A stretch of DNA of 64,000 nt from Mytilus edulis (Eukaryota), in NCBI RefSeq assembly GCF_963676685.1, contig NC_092352.1, forward strand, positions 6,200,001-6,264,000, in the 5' to 3' direction. The notes under the pieces are model-generated. The model was not told where the DNA came from, did no database searches, and saw only the letters and a program-made list of their open reading frames with translations. Positions 50,770 to 64,000 of this stretch are shown one piece after another; position 1 is the first letter of the stretch, and each line of letters starts with the position of its first letter. The position numbers were made by a program, and so were the translations under genes.

Positions 50770-52315
50770 ATTGGACATGATGGTAGATTCAGTCAGAACT
50801 TCTTATTTGCCTTCAAGACTAAATCCTGGCAATTCAGATAAAGCAACTCATTTGAAATAACCTTAAGAGGGTACTACAATTGAAGTTTTCAAGAATGTCG
50901 AAGCCATGTCTGGTAGACTTAAAAATAGGTCAGTTCGCCTAAGAGATGAAAAGGCTTTTATGGTGTCGAAAAAAGATTTCACAGAATTTTGCCCCCCCCC
51001 GCCCAAGGCTTGATGATAATATAGAGGAGGGTTTGTCTTCTACTATGGGCAATAAGAAAAAGGGTTTTGTAGACCGTAAAAAGTTTTCACACTCTTAACC
51101 TTCCTTCCATAAGGAAATGGATGCTGAATTTTAAAAGTTGACAACTCAGCTAGGACATTGTTAAGAAGTGTTTCATATGGCTCTTTGATAGCAAGCTATA
51201 TTGATGTTGCTGATTCAGAGGAAGACAGGGTAGAAGCATGTTCAGCTTTAGTAGCATGTTTCAAATCAATGGCAGATATGACTTCACGTATAGTTGCTAA
51301 TTCTGTTATAAACAGAAGGAAGATTTTCTTAAAAAATGTAGATTTCACTAGCAAAGCCACATCAGCTAAATTGTTGAATTTACCTTTGAATGGCGCACAA
51401 CTTTTTTCATACCTCATCACTTCAAAATGGAAACTCTCCGATCGATTCTAAAAAGCCTGAAAATTTGGGACTGGGCAGTAAAACTGGATTTGCAAGATGC
51501 ATATTTCCATATCCCGATTCACAAGCATTACAGAAAGTTTCTCCGCTTCAGCATTTTGGGAAAAAAAGTATCAATACCGAGCTCTATCGATCGGTCTACA
51601 ATCGGCTCCAAGGATTTTCACAAAAGTGATGGCAGTAGTAGGTGCATATCTGCGAAAACAAATGATTCACATATTTATGTACCTGGACGATTGGATGTTA
51701 AAAAACAGCAGCAAAATAAAGCTGACAAAACAATTCCAGTATACACTCAAGAATTGTTAAAAAATCTGGGTTTGATAATCAATGTGAAAAAATCTTGTTT
51801 AGTTCCGACTCAAATAATAGAGCAGTGATTCACTTAAAAGAAATTCTTGTTTTTCCGTCTATAGAGAGATTCAAAAATATAAGTCAGATGATTAAAATAT
51901 TCCTAAATTCACAAACAGTAGAGGCACGTGTAATGTTGAGACTACTTGGTCTAATGGCTTCATGCATAGATTTAGTTCCATGGGCCCGACTGCACATGAG
52001 CCCACTTCAGCTTTATCTTCTAGCTTGTTGGAGACCAGCTCTACACAGTTTAAATCATTTGATTCCACTGTATCAACCACTTCAGGAACATCTATTCTGG
52101 TGGCTAAACCGAAGAATTTTTTTCAAGGGAGTGTTATTAGAACAGGAATCTGCTCAGGTGACTCTAGGTGACAGATGCGTCACAGTCGGGATGGAGAGCT
52201 CATATAAACAATTTTCAGATAGCAGGTGTTTGGCCACCTCAGTACAAAGTGAAACACATCAATTGGCTAGAACTCAAAGCTGTGCAGTTAGCACTGCAAA
52301 CATTTCTGATAAAAG
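50770..52315 (+). mobile_element. Decayed DIRS1-like retroelement, 5' part (gag remnant, RT, start of RNase H)
   Basis: Gag-like ...VINRRKIFL...LNLPLNGAQLF joined by an apparent internal deletion near 51410 to RT FKMETL, KLDLQDAYFHIPI, YQYRALSIGLQSAPRIFTK, YLDDW and RNase H TDAS..GWRA, HINWLELKAV. Several frameshifts and stops; left boundary approximate. Confidence 0.88.
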
Positions 52316-54165
52316 TGTTGTACTGACTTTCTGTGCTGTGTCTGATGACTTTTAGCGCCTGGTGTAAAACAAGAGAAAGTTCTAGTAAATATTGATGTTT
52401 ATTATTTGAAATCAGTAATCAAAGTGCTACAGATTTTACACAATAAAATAGCAAGTCTCACTTGATAATAAATTTAGAATTTCACAAATGAACTAAATTA
52501 AGGGACATAACTCTATGCAAATATTAACTAATTAAATAAAACTTGCCCAAACTATATTTTATCAAGTGAAACCGCTTTACAAAACTTAACGCACAGGTTA
52601 ATGCATAATACAATATGTTAAATAAACCGAATCATTTCAACTAAAAAGAATGCTTAATTTAAAATGTTTTGTATAATAACTTGTTGCTATGGAAATAATA
52701 AACCTTTAAAATTAATAAAATCTTTGCCAAACTATTTCTATATTTAATCGCATAAAATCTAATACCAAATACAATTTATTTCTGAATAAATTGGTATGTA
52801 ATATAACTTTGCATAATTCTTTAAACAGTATTTACTCTTTTTGCAAAATATTAAAATAAAGAATATACCCATGTTGCTTAGCAACAACATGTCTTCTGTC
52901 ACGAGTTCCGTGTATGAGTGTTATACAATAAAATTAACTAAATTCAATTTAAATATAAGTTCAAAAGTCAATTCAAAATGTTCAAACTATTTTGTAAACA
53001 AACTGAAATCTTGCGGACAAGTGTCGCTTTCCAAAACCTAATTTATGAACTAAATAAGCAATCTATCTACAAAATATAAAACACAACTTACAGAAATATA
53101 AAGTAGAAAATAAGGTTTCATGTCCTTGTTATTTAGCTTTCGATCTAACTCAATAATCATTGCTTTATCAACAAAAGACATTTCTCCCGGCAAATAAAAA
53201 TTACAAATTATCTCCCCTGGACATTATAATACTTAAAAGTTAATACGGATACAATATGAAATATTTCCGAACTTTAAATAAACTTTTAAAAATAACTATT
53301 ATAAAATTAACTAAATGTTTCTAAACATAGAATAGATTTTAATTAAATAAATTCTTGAAACGTTTCTCAATTGTTTACATAAATAAAGCATCGCGTCCTA
53401 AGCGTAACCAAGATAAAAATAATTAATCTCAATGGAAACGAAATATAATCTATACAAAATATATACAATTAATTTAAGTGAATATCATAAAATTAATTTT
53501 AACTTTAGTAAGCTTTTCCCACAATATAAAGTAATCTAAACTCTTTAACTTAAATAAAACAAAAATACAAAAAATATAATTCAACTTACCTGGTGTAAAA
53601 CAAGAGAAAGTTCTAGTAAATATTGATGTTTATTATTTGAAATCAGTAATCAAAGTGACCGTTGAAAACATAAATTGTTTCCATGCGGGCGTGGTCACAT
53701 GATCACTGATTTCTAAACTTTCTCCTGTTTTCACCAATCAAAAATTACCTTGTAAAACTCCCTTGACCACAACCTATTTTCGCTGGTTGGTCAATAATCC
53801 AGTCATGGGTGACAGGTGTTATAAACAATTTCACACATGAGTAATAGGAAAAGGTTGTTTAACAAAAGCCTTAATTTACATGTAAGGTACATAATCCAAA
53901 GTAAATAATTTAGCACTTACATGTCTCTTTGTTATCCGTCTTAATTACGTAATCTAAATATTAAAGTTGTATGTCATTCTTCTTTATCAAAAATTAACAT
54001 TCCAAAAATAATGTAACTTATGTAAGGAGAAATTTTAGAAAATAAAATAAAATTTAAACTTCAAAATACTTTAACTCAAATTGTAAAAATTGAATAATTT
54101 TCACTTAAGTTTTGGTCTGTTATATTAAAATTTTGTCTTTGGCAATTCATAATTTTTCTATAACA
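52316..54165 (-). repeat. 3' LTR of the gypsy element (1850 bp)
   Basis: Direct repeat of 60709-62559, preceded on the minus strand by the purine tract GAGGAAGAG. Confidence 0.96.
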
Positions 54166-54166
54166 A

Positions 54167-54175
54167 CTCTTCCTC
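54167..54175 (-). other. Polypurine tract
   Basis: Minus strand GAGGAAGAG, then one T, then TGTTATAG at the start of the 3' LTR. Confidence 0.75.
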
Positions 54176-55280
54176 AACCTCACTAAGCTTTGTCCCAAAG
54201 CTTGAATTTGAAACATCATCTGAACTGATAAAATAAAAATAATAATTATATATATATACATGTAAAAAGAATAAAAGTATGATAAACATAATGTAAAAGT
54301 TCATATAGAGTCAATGTTTATATATCACAATCATGTGAATGTAGTTTTGTGATCTAATGCCCATAAAATACTTCAGTTAAAAAATTAAAAATACATATAT
54401 GTATGGTCATAATTGCAGATATTCAATAAGACACTTCCAAAATTTCAAAGTATGTATGTTAATACACTTGTAACGGGGAGGCACTGAGGTATTGCTTGTT
54501 TGCAAATATGCATTTAATAAGTATTACGGTACCAATTTGCATATGAGGAGGAAGATTAACACTTCACACTAAAATATGTGTGTTTTAAAAATAGTACTGA
54601 TGCAGTTTTCCAATAATGAAAAATCAAGTAAACCAGGTGCTTTAGTGCAACAGAAAAGTCAAAGTACCAATACATTTTCATATTAATAGACAATATAACA
54701 ATATAAAATTCAAATATAAAACATGAAAATGAATGATTTCTTATATGCTCACTCCTTGTAAGCGCATGATCTGCAATCTCACGATCTGCAATCTCTATGA
54801 CATAATGTAATCTAAAAATATGTTTAAATAACTGTGTTCTAAATCCTACAAAAAGAAATAAACTAAACATTAATACACTCTAAACTCCTCCACTTTGGCT
54901 CTCGGTAACATTTCACTGAACACTTAACTTCATCATACATAACTATAATATTGGAATGGATTCAAGTTTCTCAGGACACTCAGTTGCTAAAATAAAAAAA
55001 AGTGATGATTAGTCGAATGAGCACGGCCGTACTCTAGCACTACTGACAACAAAACACATATGCATTCTGTTAGGTTTGACTTCACATCATAATTTGCCTA
55101 TCAAATTTCTGAAATTAGAAAAAAAATGTTAATCAAAGGGTCAAATAATTAAAGAAAGGTCCACTGCGCAGATTCGAAACTGGAGTTCAATCCAGATTAT
55201 TTGAATGTAAGTGAGTTATTCGCCATCAAAGCTTTATCTGTGTTATTCCAGTGAAATTTTGTACAGTAATTTGTTTTCAC

Positions 55281-58200
55281 CTATGGCCTTGTAAAATATT
55301 TTTTCTGTTTTCTCCTCCTTCCTTTTTTTGTTTTCCTCGTAAAGTATTCTTGTATCAATCCCTCTCCAATATTCTGTTTTGGTTCCCATGTCGGTTTGGA
55401 ACCATCTTTCCATTTCACAAGAAAATACTGTATTCCTCTTGTTTTCCTTGTATTTAGTAGTGTCTCAACCTCATGAAACGTATCATCTATGACATTGTTT
55501 GGTTCATCTCCATTATCACTGTTAGTATCTGAATTTGTACTCTCATCGTCTGCAATTTGATCATCTTGATCATTATCTGCAAGTGGGTTATTTTGTGCAT
55601 TGGGTGGATTATCTGGAACTGGACGATCTGGAGCTTGTGGCGGGTCACGGAAATCAGTGGGATCAACATATTGTCTAAGATTGCTCGCATTGACCATAGC
55701 TTTAACTTCCTTCTGGTCACTGCAGCGTCTTAATTTATATGTGAAATTCGGCCCACAGTCAGTTATGTAATAAGGACCATTAAATTTATCAACTAATTTT
55801 GGTGAACGACCGACAGGGACTACATGTTCTTTAAGTAAAACTTTATCTCTAAGCCTAAATTCGGGAATTTTGGTATTTTTGTCGTATCGTTCTTTCATTT
55901 TTGCTTGTTTAAGCTTAATATTTTCAGCAGCCAAATCTTGGGTAATTTTGAGGTTTGAAATTATTTCTTCTAAATGGTGTTTTGCATCTTTTGACAGATT
56001 GTCTTTTGGCAAAACAGATGCGTCAAAAGGTAAGTTCATCTCCTTGCCGAACACCATTGAGAAGGGAGAATACTCTGTTGATTGAGTTGACGGAGAATTT
56101 CTAAAAGCCATTAAAATACCAGGGAGTTTATTTGGCCAATTGTTCTGGTCCTTATCACTATAAGCTCTGACTGCCTGTATAAGTGTACTATTGGTCCTTT
56201 CCACTAATCCATTTGTCTGGGGATGGTAGGAACTTGTATGATGCCTTGTAATATTCAACATTTCACACAAAGCATTCACCAAATTCGATACAAAATTTCT
56301 ACCAAGATCTGTGACTAGACACTTCATTGCACCATAACGACTAATAATTTCACGAAATAAAACCTTTGCAACCTCAGAAGCTTCTTGAGTTTTCATAGGA
56401 AAGGCCTCACTCCATTTAGAAAAAGAATCTACTAAAAGCAACACATAAGAATAACCTTCGTTAGTTTTACTGAGTTTCAGAAAATCCATATGCCATCTTT
56501 CAAAGGTTGTGTCAACTGGCAGAGGATTAAGAGGTGGTTTCTTACCCTTTGTATCTCTTTTAATTCTCTGACAGCGATCACATGATCGAATGTAGTTTTC
56601 AATACTTTGGTGCATTTTAGGCCAAAAGTACTTAAGACTCAAAGCATGATAAACACGTTCGATCCCAAGATGTGCACCACCTACGAAACTATCATGATAA
56701 CTTAAAAGAGCATCCTCTCTAAGAGCTTGAGGGAGACATAATTGTTTAATCCACTTTTCACCATTGTCAACTCTGACTCTCTTCTGAAACCATTTATACA
56801 GAACATTATTACAGATAGAGTAATCTTGAGCAGATTTTTGAACTTTTGAACTCTGATCATTGTCTGCAGGAAGAATACCCTGAGTAAGAAATTTGTACAT
56901 ATTTCCAAAATCATGACAATTTTGTTGCAACTTTGCAATAGCAGGAAGGTTTGACAATTCTGGTCTGGCAATAACGGGATCTAATGGAGCAACCATAGTG
57001 TAATCATCATAAAAGAATTCCACTTGGATACTCTCAAAAGTCTTATCATTGCCACTAGCTTCTGTTCTAGTATTCACTTCAGATACCTTTACAGCTGCGA
57101 CTTCATTTTCATCGTCAGGCTGTTCAGGATATGAGCGTCTACTCAGAGCATCAGCTACTTGATTGTTACAACCCTTTCTATACTTAATCTCAAAATTGTA
57201 ATGCTGCAAGTCCATTGCCCATCTTGTAAGTTTACCTGTATTTGCCTTCTGGTTCATAAGATATGTCAATGCTTTGTGATCAGTATATATAGTGAATTTG
57301 CCAGTAGCAAGATAAGTGTTAAATGTTTTTACACCTTGAACTACTGCATAACACTCTTTTTCAGTTGTATTCCAAACCTGTTCAGTTTTGGATAAACTTT
57401 TACCACCAAAAGCAATGACACGCTCTTTTCTCTGACTGTCTAATTGACCTAGAACAAAACCAATAGCTGAATTTGAAGCATCACAAGTCAGCATAAAGGG
57501 TTTATTCATGTCAGGGTAAGCCAGGACAGGAGGTGTTAATAAAGCTTGTTTTAAATTGTCAAAAGCTACTTGACATTCCCTATTCCATTTAAAACTTCTT
57601 TCTCTTTCCTTCTTTAACAACCCATTTAAAGGAGTGGCAATCTTAGAATATGAATCAACAAAGCGTCGATAATAATTGCACATTCCCAAAAATGAGCGGA
57701 CCTGTTTTTGTCTTGTAGGGACAGGAAAAGTACTAATAGCTTTTGTCTTTTCAGGATCCACCTTAATACCTTCTTTTGAAATGATGTGCCCTAAGTATTT
57801 CACCTCTTTTGCTGCAAACACACATTTGCTTGGTTTCAATGTGAGATTTGCATCACGAAGACGAGTGAAAACTTGTTCTAGATGCGAAAGATGCTCTTCA
57901 AAACTCCTACTAAATACCAAAATATCATCCACATAAACTAAGACAAATTGCCAATTGAGACCACGTAAAACATTAGACATGAGCTGTTGAAAACTTATAG
58001 GAGCGTTTTTAAGACCAAAAGGCATTCTGAGAAATTCATAGACACCATTACGAGTAATAAAAGCTGATTTATGTCTGGTTTCCTCGTCCATCTCGACTTG
58101 CCAAAATCCACTGTGAAGGTCGAGACAACTCAGAATTTGAGGCTGCACCTCACCAATCGTGTCAAATACGTTTTCTAGCCGTGGAATTGGAAAGGACGAA

Positions 58201-59384
58201 TTTTTTGTTTGAAGGTTCAATTTTCTAAAGTCCACACAAAATCTGTACTGCTGAGGCTGACCCGGTGCAGTTTTCTTTTTCACTAATATAACAGGTGAAT
58301 GATACTCACTAGTTGATTCTTTGATGATGTTGTTTTTCTTCATTTCTACCAAATGCTTTTCTGTTTCTTTATGCATATGAGGAGACTGGTTATAGAATCC
58401 CATTTTGACTGGCCTGGAATCCCTAAAAGTTTCAATTCTGTGCTTGTACCTATTAGTAAAACCTAATTCAGATAAATTAGTAGCAAAAATATCTCTATAA
58501 GAAGCTAGAAATGTCTGCATTTTCTGTCTCTGCTCAGAATTCAAATCAGATGTGCTGAAATCAAAATTAATAGGTTCCTTGGCTTCCTTAGTTTGCTGTA
58601 AACTAGCAACAGATGGCATGTTATTATCTAAATCATGAATACAATTTGAATCGATGTCTGATACAGAAGCAAGCACTTTTGTTGCGGGAATGTGTATTTT
58701 CTGATTTGTAGGATTCATCAATCTTATGACCGCTCTTTTCTTAATAATTTTGACCAAACATTTAGCACTCGTAAGATTGGAATCCGCTAAATTACTTACT
58801 GGTTCCAAAAGACCTATTTCTCCTGAATTTCTTTTTGAAATTTTGACACCAACATTCATTTCACAAAATGGAGAAATAGTGACAGGGTAATACGTTCTAG
58901 CAAGACCAGTACTAGACGTCTGTATCATACATACTTTAGGTATATCTGCATTTTCTTTATCTGGTACCTGTAATACACTTTTAGAAAAATCAATATTAAT
59001 CTTGTTTGCATGTAAAAAATCCCAACCTACTATAAAAGAATGATGTAGCCCATCTATAACATAAACATGATAATTAAAAACAGCACCTTTAAATGAAATT
59101 GGTAAATTAACTTTTCCTAGCACTTGTAACCTATGTCCACTTACACCTTTAATTGATGGAATATCTGATTGCAAAAGTTTATCAGAAAGGGCCAACTTGC
59201 TATAAAAATCAAAACTACAGCAAGTAATTTCTGCACCAGTATCAATCAATGCATGTGTTTTTCTGCCATTGATATCAATAATTGAAGTATTTTTCTGCAT
59301 AGGCAATACCAAATTTACCTCTGCAAAAGAATTTCTACCTCTGTGCCTATCCTTTGACAAATGCCTAGGGACAGGCGCGAATCC
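55281..59384 (-). CDS. pol: Pol polyprotein PR-RT-RNase H-integrase-chromodomain, in frame with gag after a single TAG
   Basis: Protease LIDTGA; RT YRFCVDFRKLN, LDLHSGFWQ, MPFGL, YVDD; RNase H TCDAS, YTDH; integrase HHCC (HDSFVGGAH...CDRC), WHMDF, VTDLG, GLVERTN; GPY motif; LVKW...TWEP chromodomain. Open from the codon after the gag stop (59384); the ORF track start at 59360 is a TTG. Confidence 0.96.
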   Translation of the reverse strand, partial: GFAPVPRHLSKDRHRGRNSFAEVNLVLPMQKNTSIIDINGRKTHALIDTGAEITCCSFDFYSKLALSDKLLQSDIPSIKGVSGHRLQVLGKVNLPISFKGAVFNYHVYVIDGLHHSFIVGWDFLHANKINIDFSKSVLQVPDKENADIPKVCMIQTSSTGLARTYYPVTISPFCEMNVGVKISKRNSGEIGLLEPVSNLADSNLTSAKCLVKIIKKRAVIRLMNPTNQKIHIPATKVLASVSDIDSNCIHDLDNNMPSVASLQQTKEAKEPINFDFSTSDLNSEQRQKMQTFLASYRDIFATNLSELGFTNRYKHRIETFRDSRPVKMGFYNQSPHMHKETEKHLVEMKKNNIIKESTSEYHSPVILVKKKTAPGQPQQYRFCVDFRKLNLQTKNSSFPIPRLENVFDTIGEVQPQILSCLDLHSGFWQVEMDEETRHKSAFITRNGVYEFLRMPFGLKNAPISFQQLMSNVLRGLNWQFVLVYVDDILVFSRSFEEHLSHLEQVFTRLRDANLTLKPSKCVFAAKEVKYLGHIISKEGIKVDPEKTKAISTFPVPTRQKQVRSFLGMCNYYRRFVDSYSKIATPLNGLLKKERERSFKWNRECQVAFDNLKQALLTPPVLAYPDMNKPFMLTCDASNSAIGFVLGQLDSQRKERVIAFGGKSLSKTEQVWNTTEKECYAVVQGVKTFNTYLATGKFTIYTDHKALTYLMNQKANTGKLTRWAMDLQHYNFEIKYRKGCNNQVADALSRRSYPEQPDDENEVAAVKVSEVNTRTEASGNDKTFESIQVEFFYDDYTMVAPLDPVIARPELSNLPAIAKLQQNCHDFGNMYKFLTQGILPADNDQSSKVQKSAQDYSICNNVLYKWFQKRVRVDNGEKWIKQLCLPQALREDALLSYHDSFVGGAHLGIERVYHALSLKYFWPKMHQSIENYIRSCDRCQRIKRDTKGKKPPLNPLPVDTTFERWHMDFLKLSKTNEGYSYVLLLVDSFSKWSEAFPMKTQEASEVAKVLFREIISRYGAMKCLVTDLGRNFVSNLVNALCEMLNITRHHTSSYHPQTNGLVERTNSTLIQAVRAYSDKDQNNWPNKLPGILMAFRNSPSTQSTEYSPFSMVFGKEMNLPFDASVLPKDNLSKDAKHHLEEIISNLKITQDLAAENIKLKQAKMKERYDKNTKIPEFRLRDKVLLKEHVVPVGRSPKLVDKFNGPYYITDCGPNFTYKLRRCSDQKEVKAMVNASNLRQYVDPTDFRDPPQAPDRPVPDNPPNAQNNPLADNDQDDQIADDESTNSDTNSDNGDEPNNVIDDTFHEVETLLNTRKTRGIQYFLVKWKDGSKPTWEPKQNIGEGLIQEYFTRKTKKGRRRKQKKYFTRP

Positions 59385-60638
59385 CTAGCGGTGAAAAGGG
59401 GGGTTTTGACCAGATTTTTGTGAACCTCTGCATTTACGACCATAATGCCCTATCTTATGACAATTAAAACACTCTTTATTTCTTGCTGGGCAATTAGTAC
59501 CACAAAACATACCACAATTTTCACATGAACCATCATCTTGTTGTTGTTGTTGCTGCTGCTGGTGATATGGATTCTGTACTGCTGCTGGCATCGGTTGGCT
59601 GTACTGTTGTCCATTATACACTACTGGCTGTTGTTGAATGTACTGTTGTTGCGGTACAAAAGCGTGTTGTTGTTGGTAACCCTGTCCTTGTCGATAGTTT
59701 GGTCTTGGTTTGTTGTACCTGGGTTTGTTCTGTTGTTGAGGCTGGTTTGGTTTTGCCATGTTGATCGAGGTATGCAGTCTTCTAATTTCCTCTAATGGTT
59801 CCTGCATCTTGGCCTCCAGTATTGCTGCAATCGTATCAGCAGTTATTGATGATGCTGGTACAAGTTGTTCCGATTTCTCTGCATTTTCTGCAATGGCCCT
59901 TAATTGTTCCAAAGTAACTGGCTTTGGAAAAGTGTTGTGGACTGTTTTCCCTATCTCCCCTCTAAAACCTTGAATTGCAATGCCTATCTTTATGTTGTCA
60001 GGAATGTCCTGTCCTGTGGTTTTTTCTTGTAATCGCGCCATAAACTCATCCACTCTTTCATTTTGGCCTTGTTTTAATTGGAGAATGTTAACATCAAACA
60101 GCCCTTGTGATTTTTCAAAGCGTTTGAAAAATTCATCCTTCAATAGCTGTAATGAATTATGCACAGTTTCTGAAAGTGTTGCAAACCATTGTTTTGGAAT
60201 ACCATCTGCCATAAAGAATGGGAAGGAATTACACTGTTGTTGTTCGCACATTTTTTGAATGAGGGTCCAACGTATAAAATATCCCCACCATTGTGATGCA
60301 GATGATTTCCCATCATAATTGTTTAGGTTTATTCCTGAAGGCATGTTCACACTTACTTCTCTAATCACTTGGACTACTGCAGGTGTTGATGATGTTGATG
60401 CAGTTGATACTGTTGATGTTGCTGTTGATGCAGTTGATGTTGCTGTTGATGCAGTTGATGTTGCTGATGCTGTTGGTGTGGTCAAGGTTGACGTATTTTC
60501 TATTAATAGGAGAGGACCTGTTGATGTTGAAGCTGTTGACGTTGAAGCTGTTGTCTCTGTTGCTTGTTGATGCACTCTTGCTTCTGGTCTTATAGTATCT
60601 TGACTTCGGAGAAGGTAGCTATTCAGTGGTGCTGGCAT
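59385..60638 (-). CDS. gag: Gag polyprotein (417 aa)
   Basis: ATG about 60 nt after the PBS. Retrotransposon-gag-like core (PKQWF...LKDEFFKRF...LKQGQNERVDEF) and C-terminal zinc knuckle CFNCHKIGHYGRKC. Confidence 0.92.
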   Translation of the reverse strand: MPAPLNSYLLRSQDTIRPEARVHQQATETTASTSTASTSTGPLLLIENTSTLTTPTASATSTASTATSTASTATSTVSTASTSSTPAVVQVIREVSVNMPSGINLNNYDGKSSASQWWGYFIRWTLIQKMCEQQQCNSFPFFMADGIPKQWFATLSETVHNSLQLLKDEFFKRFEKSQGLFDVNILQLKQGQNERVDEFMARLQEKTTGQDIPDNIKIGIAIQGFRGEIGKTVHNTFPKPVTLEQLRAIAENAEKSEQLVPASSITADTIAAILEAKMQEPLEEIRRLHTSINMAKPNQPQQQNKPRYNKPRPNYRQGQGYQQQHAFVPQQQYIQQQPVVYNGQQYSQPMPAAVQNPYHQQQQQQQQDDGSCENCGMFCGTNCPARNKECFNCHKIGHYGRKCRGSQKSGQNPPFHR

Positions 60639-60697
60639 TTGTATGGTACTGATGTTATCTTCTTACTTGTTTGGGACTAGCTTTGGATCTTTCGGTC

Positions 60698-60706
60698 TCT
60701 CCACCA
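60698..60706 (-). other. Primer binding site, probably tRNA-Ala
   Basis: Minus strand reads LTR-CA TT TGGTGGAGA; complementary to the tRNA-Ala 3' end UCUCCACCA. Confidence 0.75.
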
Positions 60707-60708
60707 AA

Positions 60709-62559
60709 TGTTGTACTGACTTTCTGTGCTGTGTCTGATGACTTTTAGCGCCTGGTGTAAAACAAGAGAAAGTTCTAGTAAATATTGATGTTTATTATTT
60801 GAAATCAGTAATCAAAGTGCTACAGATTTTACACAATAAAATAGCAAGTCTCACTTGATAATAAATTTAGAATTTCACAAATGAACTAAATTAAGGGACA
60901 TAACTCTATGCAAATATTAACTAATTAAATAAAACTTGCCCAAACTATATTTTATCAAGTGAAACCGCTTTACAAAACTTAACGCACAGGTTAATGCATA
61001 ATACAATATGTTAAATAAACCGAATCATTTCAACTAAAAAGAATGCTTAATTTAAAATGTTTTGTATAATAACTTGTTGCTATGGAAATAATAAACCTTT
61101 AAAATTAATAAAATCTTTGCCAAACTATTTCTATATTTAATCGCATAAAATCTAATACCAAATACAATTTATTTCTGAATAAATTGGTATGTAATATAAC
61201 TTTGCATAATTCTTTAAACAGTATTTACTCTTTTTGCAAAATATTAAAATAAAGAATATACCCATGTTGCTTAGCAACAACATGTCTTCTGTCACGAGTT
61301 CCGTGTATGAGTGTTATACAATAAAATTAACTAAATTCAATTTAAATATAAGTTCAAAAGTCAATTCAAAATGTTCAAACTATTTTGTAAACAAACTGAA
61401 ATCTTGCGGACAAGTGTCGCTTTCCAAAACCTAATTTATGAACTAAATAAGCAATCTATCTACAAAATATAAAACACAACTTACAGAAATATAAAGTAGA
61501 AAATAAGGTTTCATGTCCTTGTTATTTAGCTTTCGATCTAACTCAATAATCATTGCTTTATCAACAAAAGACATTTCTCCCGGCAAATAAAAATTACAAA
61601 TTATCTCCCCTGGACATTATAATACTTAAAAGTTAATACGGATACAATATGAAATATTTCCGAACTTTAAATAAACTTTTAAAAATAACTATTATAAAAT
61701 TAACTAAATGTTTCTAAACATAGAATAGATTTTAATTAAATAAATTCTTGAAACGTTTCTCAATTGTTTACATAAATAAAGCATCGCGTCCTAAGCGTAA
61801 CCAAGATAAAAATAATTAATCTCAATGGAAACGAAATATAATCTATACAAAATATATACAATTAATTTAAGTGAATATCATAAAATTAATTTTAACTTTA
61901 GTAAGCTTTTCCCACAATATAAAGTAATCTAAACTCTTTAACTTAAATAAAACAAAAATACAAAAAATATAATTCAACTTACCTGGTGTAAAACAAGAGA
62001 AAGTTCTAGTAAATATTGATGTTTATTATTTGAAATCAGTAATCAAAGTGACCGTTGAAAACATAAATTGTTTCCATGCGGGCGTGGTCACATGATCACT
62101 GATTTCTAAACTTTCTCCTGTTTTCACCAATCAAAAATTACCTTGTAAAACTCCCTTGACCACAACCTATTTTCGCTGGTTGGTCAATAATCCAGTCATG
62201 GGTGACAGGTGTTATAAACAATTTCACACATGAGTAATAGGAAAAGGTTGTTTAACAAAAGCCTTAATTTACATGTAAGGTACATAATCCAAAGTAAATA
62301 ATTTAGCACTTACATGTCTCTTTGTTATCCGTCTTAATTACGTAATCTAAATATTAAAGTTGTATGTCATTCTTCTTTATCAAAAATTAACATTCCAAAA
62401 ATAATGTAACTTATGTAAGGAGAAATTTTAGAAAATAAAATAAAATTTAAACTTCAAAATACTTTAACTCAAATTGTAAAAATTGAATAATTTTCACTTA
62501 AGTTTTGGTCTTGTTATAGAAAAATTATGAATTGCCAAAGACAAAATTTTAATATAACA
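60709..62559 (-). repeat. 5' LTR of the gypsy element (1851 bp)
   Basis: Direct repeat of 52316-54165, adjacent to the PBS. Its terminal 49 bp (62511-62559) are inverted relative to the other LTR. Confidence 0.96.
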
Positions 62560-62759
62560 AAAGTACAATTCAAAAGTGTGCTAGTGAGAATAGACAATGC
62601 AACTGTCGTCAGTTATCTGAACTAACAGGGAGGTACCCGATCCCCAGACCTTTATTACTTGGCATGGGATCTTTGAAATGGTGTATAAATCACAATGTCA
62701 AAATCCAAGCTGTTCATATTCCTGGGAAAAAGAATATTATAGCAGATGCCCTGTCAAGG

Positions 62760-63230
62760 GGGAAATGATCGTTCATTTGACAGAATGGGCATTAAATATG
62801 ACAATAGTGAATTTGTTGTTCCTTAAGCTAGGAACACCAGTAATAGATCTGTTTTCGACTTCAATAAACAAGAAGCTGCCAGTGTTTTGCTCTCCTTGGC
62901 CGAAAGAAACAGCAGTGTCAATAGATGCGCTGTCGATAAAATGGACAAATCTATTTGCTTATGCCTTCCCGCCACCGATAATTCTAAACAGAATATTACA
63001 AAAAATACAGAAAGAGGACTGTGTAATTTTACTGATAGCGCCAATGTGGCCGAGACAGTCGTGGTACAGTCAACTTATCAACCTGTTAATAGACTTTCCA
63101 ATACAACTGCCTGTCCAACAAAATCTATTAAGTCAAAATGGAATTCTTCATCCAAATGCAAGTGTTTTAAATCTTGTAGCTTGGAAAGTGTCAAAAGATC
63201 TTACACTGCAAAAGGATTTTCACCAAATAT
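62760..63230 (+). pseudogene. DIRS-encoded Dam-like DNA adenine methyltransferase domain
   Basis: Within ORF 62678-63280: DLF motif, DAL..W, YAFPPP (NPP[YF]-like catalytic motif), P.WP.Q.WY; located between RNase H and YR as in DIRS1 elements. Confidence 0.75.
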
Positions 63231-63869
63231 TGCTTCAATATTTCCAATGCACGAAAACAATCTACACAGACAGTTTATAATGCAAGACTCAAGCTATTTG
63301 ACAGCTGGTGTCAAGAACGGGGTATCAATCCCAGTACGTCAACTGTGCCAGAAATAGCTGAATTTCTTATGTTTTTACATACTGTAAAGAATTGTAAGCC
63401 AATCACTTTAGCTGGTTACAAGTCAGCAATAGCTTTAATACATTCATCTAAAGATAGAATTTCTATTAACAAGGATTTGCGTAATTTAATTAAAGGATTG
63501 TACAACATTAATCCACCAATAAGGCAGTTGGCGCCAAATTGGGATTTGCCGTATGTTTTGCTAATGTTGACAAAGACACCTTTCGAACCACTAGAGGAAG
63601 CAGAATTGAAATATTTTACCTTGAAGACAGTTTTTCTTTTGGCATTAGCTTCTGCTGCAAGAGTCAGTGAATTACACAGTTTCACTATTAAAGACAAACA
63701 TTTCAGAAAAGAGCAAAGAGGTATACGGTTGTTGCCAAATATGCAGTTTCTTGCTAAAATTCAAACTTTGAATAAATCTTGGGAACCAGTATTCATTCCC
63801 AAAATCGAAAACTATGCTGCAGATCCAAACGATTTACTGCTGTGCCCTTGTAGAGCACTACCACTCTAA
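63200..63869 (+). pseudogene. Tyrosine recombinase, frameshifted and C-terminally truncated
   Basis: N-terminal SAM-like part (IAEFLMFLH...TLAGYKSAI) and ARVSEL catalytic Arg box are present; HxxR and Tyr boxes are absent. Confidence 0.8.
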
Positions 63870-64000
63870 GACATAAGCCCGGATTTCCTTATATTTTTCT
63901 ATAAATTTATCTCAGCATGTTATCAGTAATCAGTTAGATATAAATTATGTGGACACACTTGTTTAGTGGTTCACTTAATTAATTATAACCAGATGTTGAT

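Follow-up and report, generated by a model that had tools for sequence, protein, structure and literature searches.

The window analysed here is a stretch of 64,000 nt from Mytilus edulis (contig NC_092352.1, positions 6,200,001 to 6,264,000), to which all coordinates below refer. It contains a full-length Ty3/Gypsy LTR retrotransposon of 10,244 bp on the minus strand (52316-62559), assigned here to family F1. The hallmarks of the group are present, namely LTRs, a primer-binding site (PBS), a polypurine tract (PPT), TG...CA termini and a target site duplication (TSD) of 4 bp, within the 4-6 bp of the group. Only the gag and pol frames are long, both on the minus strand. The gag frame (59385-60662) spans 425 aa from stop to stop, has a CCHC knuckle close to its end and gave no Pfam match. 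The pol frame (55281-59384, 1367 aa) encodes protease, RT, RNase H and integrase in the Pfam domain order required for Ty3/Gypsy (protease-RT-RNase H-integrase), the integrase having an HHCC motif and a D,D-35-E core. At the integrase C-terminus lies a chromodomain (PF00385, 28.5 bits against a cut-off of 25.1), a chromovirus feature in an element that is not classed as a chromovirus. This chromodomain on a mollusc Gypsy integrase maps to 55281-55470 and is common among database relatives. The nearest named proteins come from Mytilus mussels and are unnamed Gypsy polyproteins.

Gag and pol share a reading frame and are separated by a single TAG (59385-59387), as in the copies F2a and F2b of the sister family F2 described below. 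The bases following this stop codon (GGATTCGCGCCT) are conserved between F1 and F2, and the position of the TAG in frame with pol suggests stop-codon read-through. A low-complexity Thr/Ala/Ser repeat with units of 9-12 nt is found near the start of gag (60369-60568). The putative PBS region (TTTGGTGG..., 60694-60708, minus strand) lies immediately behind the 5' LTR. The element has inserted into a broken retroelement (about 51100-52311 and 62564-63900). The left part of this host shows RT motifs; frames for RNase H, and methyltransferase-like and tyrosine-recombinase-like ones, lie in the right part. By its motifs the host retroelement looks DIRS-like, but a Pfam search of three of its broken frames returned nothing.

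The two LTRs of the element differ at one end only. The 3' LTR body (52316-54117, minus strand) ends with a normal U5 attachment site (ACA) and, at an offset of 8393, matches the 5' LTR without a mismatch over 52316-54117 (1802 bp), as had been claimed in a preliminary description of this DNA. The corresponding 5' LTR body (60709-62510, minus strand) starts at the G of an internal CA^GACC site and extends as far as the end of U5. Read in the sense of the element, the 3' LTR is preceded by the PPT and one spacer base, a T (together 54166-54179, minus strand), and begins with a 48-mer, TGTTATAG...AATATAACA (54118-54165, minus strand), which is followed by GACC. At the 5' end, the TSD is followed by the reverse complement of the 48-mer plus the T, and then by GACC. 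This flipped U3 piece (62511-62559, minus strand) thus comprises the TG...CA 48-mer and the spacer base in reversed form, abuts the TSD and joins GACC exactly. The exact inversion reported earlier was confirmed, since 54118-54166 equals the reverse complement of 62511-62559 over all 49 nt (100%). The same holds for the imperfect palindrome: compared base by base, 17 of 22 stem positions pair around a 4-nt loop. The hairpin of the natural 48-mer has a perfect stem of 7 bp (TGTTATA/TATAACA), and its last CA (54119-54118) would be the internal attachment site considered below. The element is flanked by AAAG on the plus strand at the U5 side (52312-52315) and at the U3 side (62560-62563). It had been suggested that the extra base might belong to a 5-bp TSD; the TSD is 4 bp here, and since 4 bp is the rule in all other copies, the extra base is the element's own, located between the PPT and TG.

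Copies of F1 were located by a DNA search of the genome and by exact patterns, and the flanking DNA was inspected for all matches to the flipped and the natural U3 start. There are 84 exact matches to the flipped start (4 for the reversed control), 66 of which do not have the element's own GGTC in front. The natural start has 57 exact matches: 17, situated between a PPT and GACC, belong to 3' LTRs, another 3 come after a flipped piece, and 37 are not followed by GACC. A normal 5' end, consisting of host DNA, natural start and GACC, was found at 0 of these 57 matches, in counts that use exact patterns, which diverged normal ends could escape.

The left ends of F1 and F2 consist of TSD, flipped U3 piece and body, in this order. 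Where a copy is intact, its body starts precisely at the internal CA^G; in 5'-truncated copies it starts further in. Five full-length F1 copies have both ends. Their flipped pieces measure 49, 39, 38, 21 and 40 nt; each is joined exactly to GACC, and each copy is flanked by an exact 4-bp TSD (5/5). The LTRs of the full-length copies, all of them flipped, are 99.5-100% identical across the part compared. In a sixth full-length copy the 5' LTR is interrupted and the left end was not found. Bodies starting at the cut G were found in the five full-length copies and in L113 and L096 (3-nt filler), and for F2 in F2b, L160, L192, L195 and L219. A further 20 F1 copies with both ends consist of a piece and a shortened body; their TSD is exact in 17, has one mismatch in 1 and is non-matching in 2 (L065, L076). 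These bodies begin anywhere from the gag region to deep within the 3' LTR. Eight of 23 shortened bodies start within the 81 nt from PPT to GACC (tail probability 1.6e-9 for an interval picked post hoc, in a count that may include solo-LTR derivatives), which fits a plus-strand break between PPT and GACC, although it is only a hint. At locus L110 a short piece is accompanied by a matching TSD. Nineteen loci with LTR bodies have no piece at the first long match, where the sequence is interrupted or deleted, and are uninformative either way; L205 does not have both LTRs and was left unscored. Locus L095, considered as a tail-to-tail U5-U5 pair, proved to be two LTR parts. Every recognisable left end in F1 and F2 has the first ~50 bases of the LTR flipped.

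Neighbouring families were obtained by an integrase search. F2 shares 58% Pol identity with F1 and forms one clade with it (100% SH-aLRT) in a quick tree built from our own families and database proteins only, to the exclusion of named reference clades and chromoviruses. Its end is a 51-mer that agrees with F1 in the outer TGTTATAG...AATATAACA^G and differs in its inner sequence. The flipped start of F2 has 78 exact matches (control 0) and the natural start 55, of which 17 are 3' LTRs, 36 are pieces and 2 are special or behind a flipped piece; a normal 5' end was found at 0 of these 55. In the full-length copy L190, a flipped piece precedes an intact natural end. The preliminary description had offered a one-off inversion after insertion as an alternative to a programmed process. 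The single accident is refuted by the recurrence of the flip in two families, where it is flanked by 4-bp TSDs. The expectation for a programmed process, a systematic flip, was borne out when orientation was scored across copies, left ends being flipped and 3' LTRs natural.

F3 (51% Pol identity) has a similar, weaker U3 hairpin, its U3 start folding at -4.7 kcal/mol in a calculation of folding only, without shuffles, and its sole informative 5' end is unflipped but has no TSD and is ambiguous. The F3 LTR starts with TATT and ends with AAAA, without TG...CA (L135-L138, L186-L189), and one F3 copy lies in tandem inside a 536-bp satellite. In the more distant control families F4 (2 copies), F5 and F6 (1 copy each), with 39-42% Pol identity, the 5' LTR start is oriented as in the 3' LTR.

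Besides complete and shortened copies, both families have given rise to mini-insertions of 37-123 bp, which consist of two flipped pieces placed tail to tail. There are 27 of these in F1, not counting L082, whose partner is cut short, and 18 in F2, a count that excludes rows of length 51 (full pieces) and the spurious rows L166, L227 and L233. Fuzzy F1 matches of 16-23 nt away from any insertion were disregarded as chance. The TSD of the F1 minis is exact in 16 of 27, with one mismatch in 6 and no match in 5; for the F2 minis the figures are 13 of 18 exact, 4 with one mismatch and 1 with two. An exact 4-bp TSD is thus present in 29/45 minis, against a chance expectation of 0.7% for an exact 4-mer. 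Minis and bodies share a target bias, with C first and A/T inside, which is what one integrase would give. The lengths and junctions of the minis are nearly all individual, and repeated junctions are found only within tandem or segmental duplications. Pieces or minis have been duplicated along with local tandem or segmental duplications at L092, L151-L153 and L196, and one flipped piece is present seven times in a satellite-like array. At 12 F1 loci, a single piece is followed by unrelated DNA, an arrangement that our preferred reading leaves unexplained. Singles are found at L055, L060, L061, L064, L066, L067, L070, L072, L075, L088 and L091; a few single pieces look as if flanked by a 4-bp duplication, and others may mark captured foreign DNA or rearrangements.

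Independent sequence data were drawn from contigs of 4 of 24 listed public runs (three organisms, four studies), one or two of which may be close to the window's own source, and aligned to 53750-54450. Depth over the 49-mer is 7-28 times that over the LTR body. Diverse unrelated DNA is joined right before 54118 in 17, 9, 8 and 1 contigs, and there is one joint on the opposite strand. Foreign DNA behind 54165 occurs in 3 + 1 contigs; one of these represents the flank of L069, a 48-bp mini, and the remaining ones could be 48-bp minis or normal ends. A search of viral contigs for relatives with flanking DNA in other species found none, and metagenome contigs contained 10 loci with just 25-38% identity.

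Taken together, the host junction on the U3 side is always the plus-strand CA at U3 position 48-51, paired either with the U5 CA or with a second such CA. In most copies both host junctions are at CA under one 4-bp TSD, and the natural U3 end is never a junction. The combination of junction pattern, TSD and target bias is what would be expected as the signature of concerted transfer by an integrase.

The inner ends of the pieces are equally regular. All 22 full F1 pieces retain 1-4 nt of the PPT side and never more (12 retain 3), and 27 full F2 pieces retain 0-5 nt (16 retain 3). Tails thus most often contain 3 nt from the PPT side, which identifies them as the unprocessed 5' end of the plus strand. 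This excludes pieces cut from continuous PPT-containing DNA, and likewise autointegration by the natural end, a candidate rejected because the pieces retain an unprocessed tail instead of a 3'-processed CA end. In the F2 mini L196 two whole pieces are joined blunt, so that the plus-strand start is fixed 3 nt before TG. Starting about 3 nt ahead of TG, the first 48-51 nt of the plus strand can fold, with a TGTTATA/TATAACA stem ending at CA^G. As single-stranded DNA, both strands of the F1 48-mer fold better than shuffles (z -3.4 and -4.1), as does the F2 end segment (z -4.6/-5.0), whose inner sequence differs. The hairpin, retained with different sequence in two families, therefore matters, as had been surmised.

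We suggest that the integrase probably uses the plus-strand CA ~50 nt inside U3, presented by a hairpin, as its left attachment site, and that repair rejoins the body. Use of this internal CA as such, be it in a hairpin or in duplex DNA, appears very probable from the junctions; it had been raised as a side remark in the preliminary description, and the data favour it. In the hairpin reading, the folded plus-strand 5' end would resemble a viral DNA end with a 3-nt 5' overhang on the non-transferred strand, the "dinucleotide" to be removed being the rest of the plus strand. The integrase would cut CA^G and transfer the internal CA together with the U5 CA, so that the piece would go in backwards and lose its continuity with the body. 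Its tail would then be joined to the body, at the cut G if the body is intact and further in if it is incomplete or resected, either before integration (hairpin closure) or after it (end joining). Repeated priming at the PPT might supply spare plus-strand 5' ends, and two of these inserted together would make a mini. LTR replication does not pass the U3 tip of the 5' LTR on to progeny. Thus, the flip would be tolerated and remade each round, the 3' LTR serving as template for progeny U3, keeping the natural orientation and allowing the cycle to repeat. In Ty3, priming at the PPT is reported to recur, and displaced plus strong-stop DNA builds up (PMC5371799). That all of this forms a programmed route, a "flip-in" in which the U3 attachment site has been replaced by a plus-strand hairpin of ~50 nt that is cut off and inserted backwards, is a proposal that we hold somewhat more readily than its denial.

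A nearly full-length F2 copy at a chromosome tip (L223, L250; end of G000:C3) bears on the order of these steps. It is capped by 7.7 kb of TTAGGG repeats that extend to the contig end, has no U5 end, and carries, placed around the 54-nt end, a perfect 21-bp arm in which the first 21 bp of the body recur as their reverse complement. This single case may be the trace expected from a hairpin-closed left end, is compatible with joining before or after integration, and suggests that a chromosome end was formed at a failed insertion.

Recognition of the internal CA in duplex DNA is the closest competitor of the hairpin reading, since both are compatible with the junction data and the steps beyond the junction pattern are deduced in either case. 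As substrates, retroviral integrases need about 16-20 bp of duplex at a DNA end that extends a short way beyond CA; the perfect stem here is 7 bp and the extension is the entire body, which counts against a hairpin. MuA nicks inside continuous DNA, and the integrase might likewise nick fully double-stranded cDNA at the internal CA, after which a long 5' flap would be removed, the minus strand would break at GGTC^TG, and non-homologous end joining would reattach the body. Identical junctions, tails and TSDs are predicted, and an in vitro study describes cutting by HIV-1 integrase within DNA at a palindromic 2-LTR junction (PMC1905944). However, three features are left unexplained: the conservation, by different sequences in the two families, of pairing further in than the 7-bp att-like repeat; the non-use of the ordinary blunt U3 end (0/57, 0/55); and the frequent lossless start of the body at G despite a trimmed piece tail. 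We therefore regard the duplex explanation as unlikely.

Less likely still is hairpin transfer before integration, the interpretation first proposed for this locus, in which the folded-back 3' end of the minus strand serves as primer for synthesis into GACC, the hairpin is then opened by a nick at GGTC^TG, and the integrase uses the newly made end normally. Its product agrees with the copy in the window, the hairpin is conserved, and closure of a left end by a hairpin may be recorded in the telomere-capped F2 copy. However, the full-length copies with pieces of 21, 38, 39 and 40 nt still join GACC exactly, and pieces that end in 1-3 unpaired tail bases likewise join at the cut G; those of 21, 38, 39 and 40 nt end on TGTCT, ATTT and TTTT, which are unable to pair with the template beside GGTC, and neither the GACC (F1) nor the GCTTT junctions have the complementarity needed for self-priming of a 3' end. 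A second nickase would be required, and the long frames are gag and pol only. Nor can fold-back priming account for the two-piece minis, 45 in number, or for pieces whose joint with the element lies deep within it. Flip/flop as known from parvoviruses does not apply either, as each end has its own invariable isomer, one at the 5' end and the opposite one in the 3' LTR. What stands of the earlier interpretation is thus the systematic flip, the hairpin and the integrase alternative, whereas the 5-bp TSD and the single accident are refuted and fold-back priming is not supported.

Terminal inverted repeats and TSDs on the minis might also indicate a MITE-like family moved by a DNA transposase, with the flipped ends derived from minis or from hairpin micro-inversions after insertion; hairpin-loop micro-inversions are common in genomes. 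This is very improbable: near-identical short copies were not seen, lengths and junctions vary among the minis, tails stop at the plus-strand start, and a loop inversion would leave the spacer base unmoved. The young full-length copies (with the near-identical LTRs noted above) are all flipped, and a MITE origin is refuted by the lack of both a family of identical minis and unflipped young copies. Palindromes can be mis-assembled, but an artefact of this kind has a negligible chance of accounting for the more than 100 loci of the two families, whose junctions and TSDs differ from locus to locus, and is refuted by these junctions together with independent short-read contigs of three organisms that join foreign DNA at the same base.

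In most respects F1 and F2 resemble Ty3/Gypsy elements (Metaviridae) and their concerted integration, with PR-RT-RH-IN, PBS, PPT, TG...CA, precise CA junctions and a 4-bp TSD. They differ in that the left junction falls at a CA on the plus strand, ~50 nt into U3, both transferred CAs are on one strand, the two LTRs differ from birth, and most insertions are 5'-truncated or minis. The canonical left junction of retroviral type, a minus-strand CA at the natural U3 end with identical LTRs, was found in 0/57 (F1) and 0/55 (F2) matches. Cutting at CA inside continuous DNA with symmetric sequence is shared with HIV-1 integrase at the 2-LTR junction, where the site is the U5-U3 circle junction and normal ends are restored (PMC1905944). 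Here, by contrast, the site is inside U3, one strand is cut, and a flipped end results. Aberrant one-ended integrations of HIV-1 and ASLV, as described in PMC5041404, also involve host repair of a part, truncation, and extra viral sequence in either orientation; there, one junction is host-made and comes with long duplications or deletions, in drug-treated or mutant settings. In the mussel elements both junctions are precise with a 4-bp TSD, and the repair joint lies inside the element, as a rule. Autointegration (Ty1, and the inversion circles of Arabidopsis SISYPHUS) likewise produces integrase-made inversions within an element; a processed end joins scattered internal sites and yields dead circles (PMC7197481). 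The inverted segment here is fixed, has an unprocessed 3-nt tail and is found in chromosomal insertions, some of them full-length.

Similarities extend to systems of other kinds. In parvovirus terminal resolution and poxvirus flip-flop, an imperfect terminal hairpin is converted to its inverted complement after a nick, and an imperfect terminal hairpin in inverted-complement form is also what is seen here; there is, however, no alternation of isomers, Rep-type protein or self-priming, and the flip is tied to integration. Twin priming of L1, and Penelope, produce 5'-truncated copies with an inverted left piece by target priming without a DDE integrase. Inversion points of L1 are variable, whereas the outer point here is fixed at one CA. 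No description of this flipped end was found in the literature searched, which did not extend to subscription journals and Repbase entries, where prior notice is possible.

Two rules are central to LTR elements and retroviruses: both natural cDNA ends are used, and the two LTRs are identical when inserted. F1 and F2 break both in every readable copy, yet they spread. Our reading would widen the range of attachment sites of Gypsy integrases to an internal, likely hairpin-presented CA. If the programmed route is true, the integrase acts on a hairpin-like cDNA end, opening it in a manner close to that of DDE transposases that form hairpins, and scatters two-headed insertions of 40-120 bp in the genome; chromosome ends healed by telomere addition would be possible. 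It would also indicate an origin for tiny palindromic, MITE-like insertions and for LTR elements whose 5' truncation resembles decay although they were born so; terminal chromosome breaks may have the same origin. Such ends will be misplaced by LTR finders and in LTR dating.

Each LTR also contains a direct repeat of 69 nt (64 nt in F2), the two copies being 1231 bp apart. In the window these lie at 52358-52426 and 53589-53657 in the 3' LTR and at 60751-60819 and 61982-62050 in the 5' LTR; the F2 counterpart is at locus L144. The first repeat copy ends with ACCAG|GTAAGT (GTAATT in F2), which is splice-donor-like, and the second ends with ACCAG shortly before the last ~42 nt of U5. AATAAA is found inside both repeat copies in F1. 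Copies with short LTRs (about 620 bp) miss precisely the part between the repeats, and one full-length copy has both LTRs short. This fits an intron within the LTR, perhaps controlling the choice of poly(A) signal, with short LTRs being copies of spliced RNA; ordinary recombination between the LTR repeats would yield the identical short-LTR sequence.
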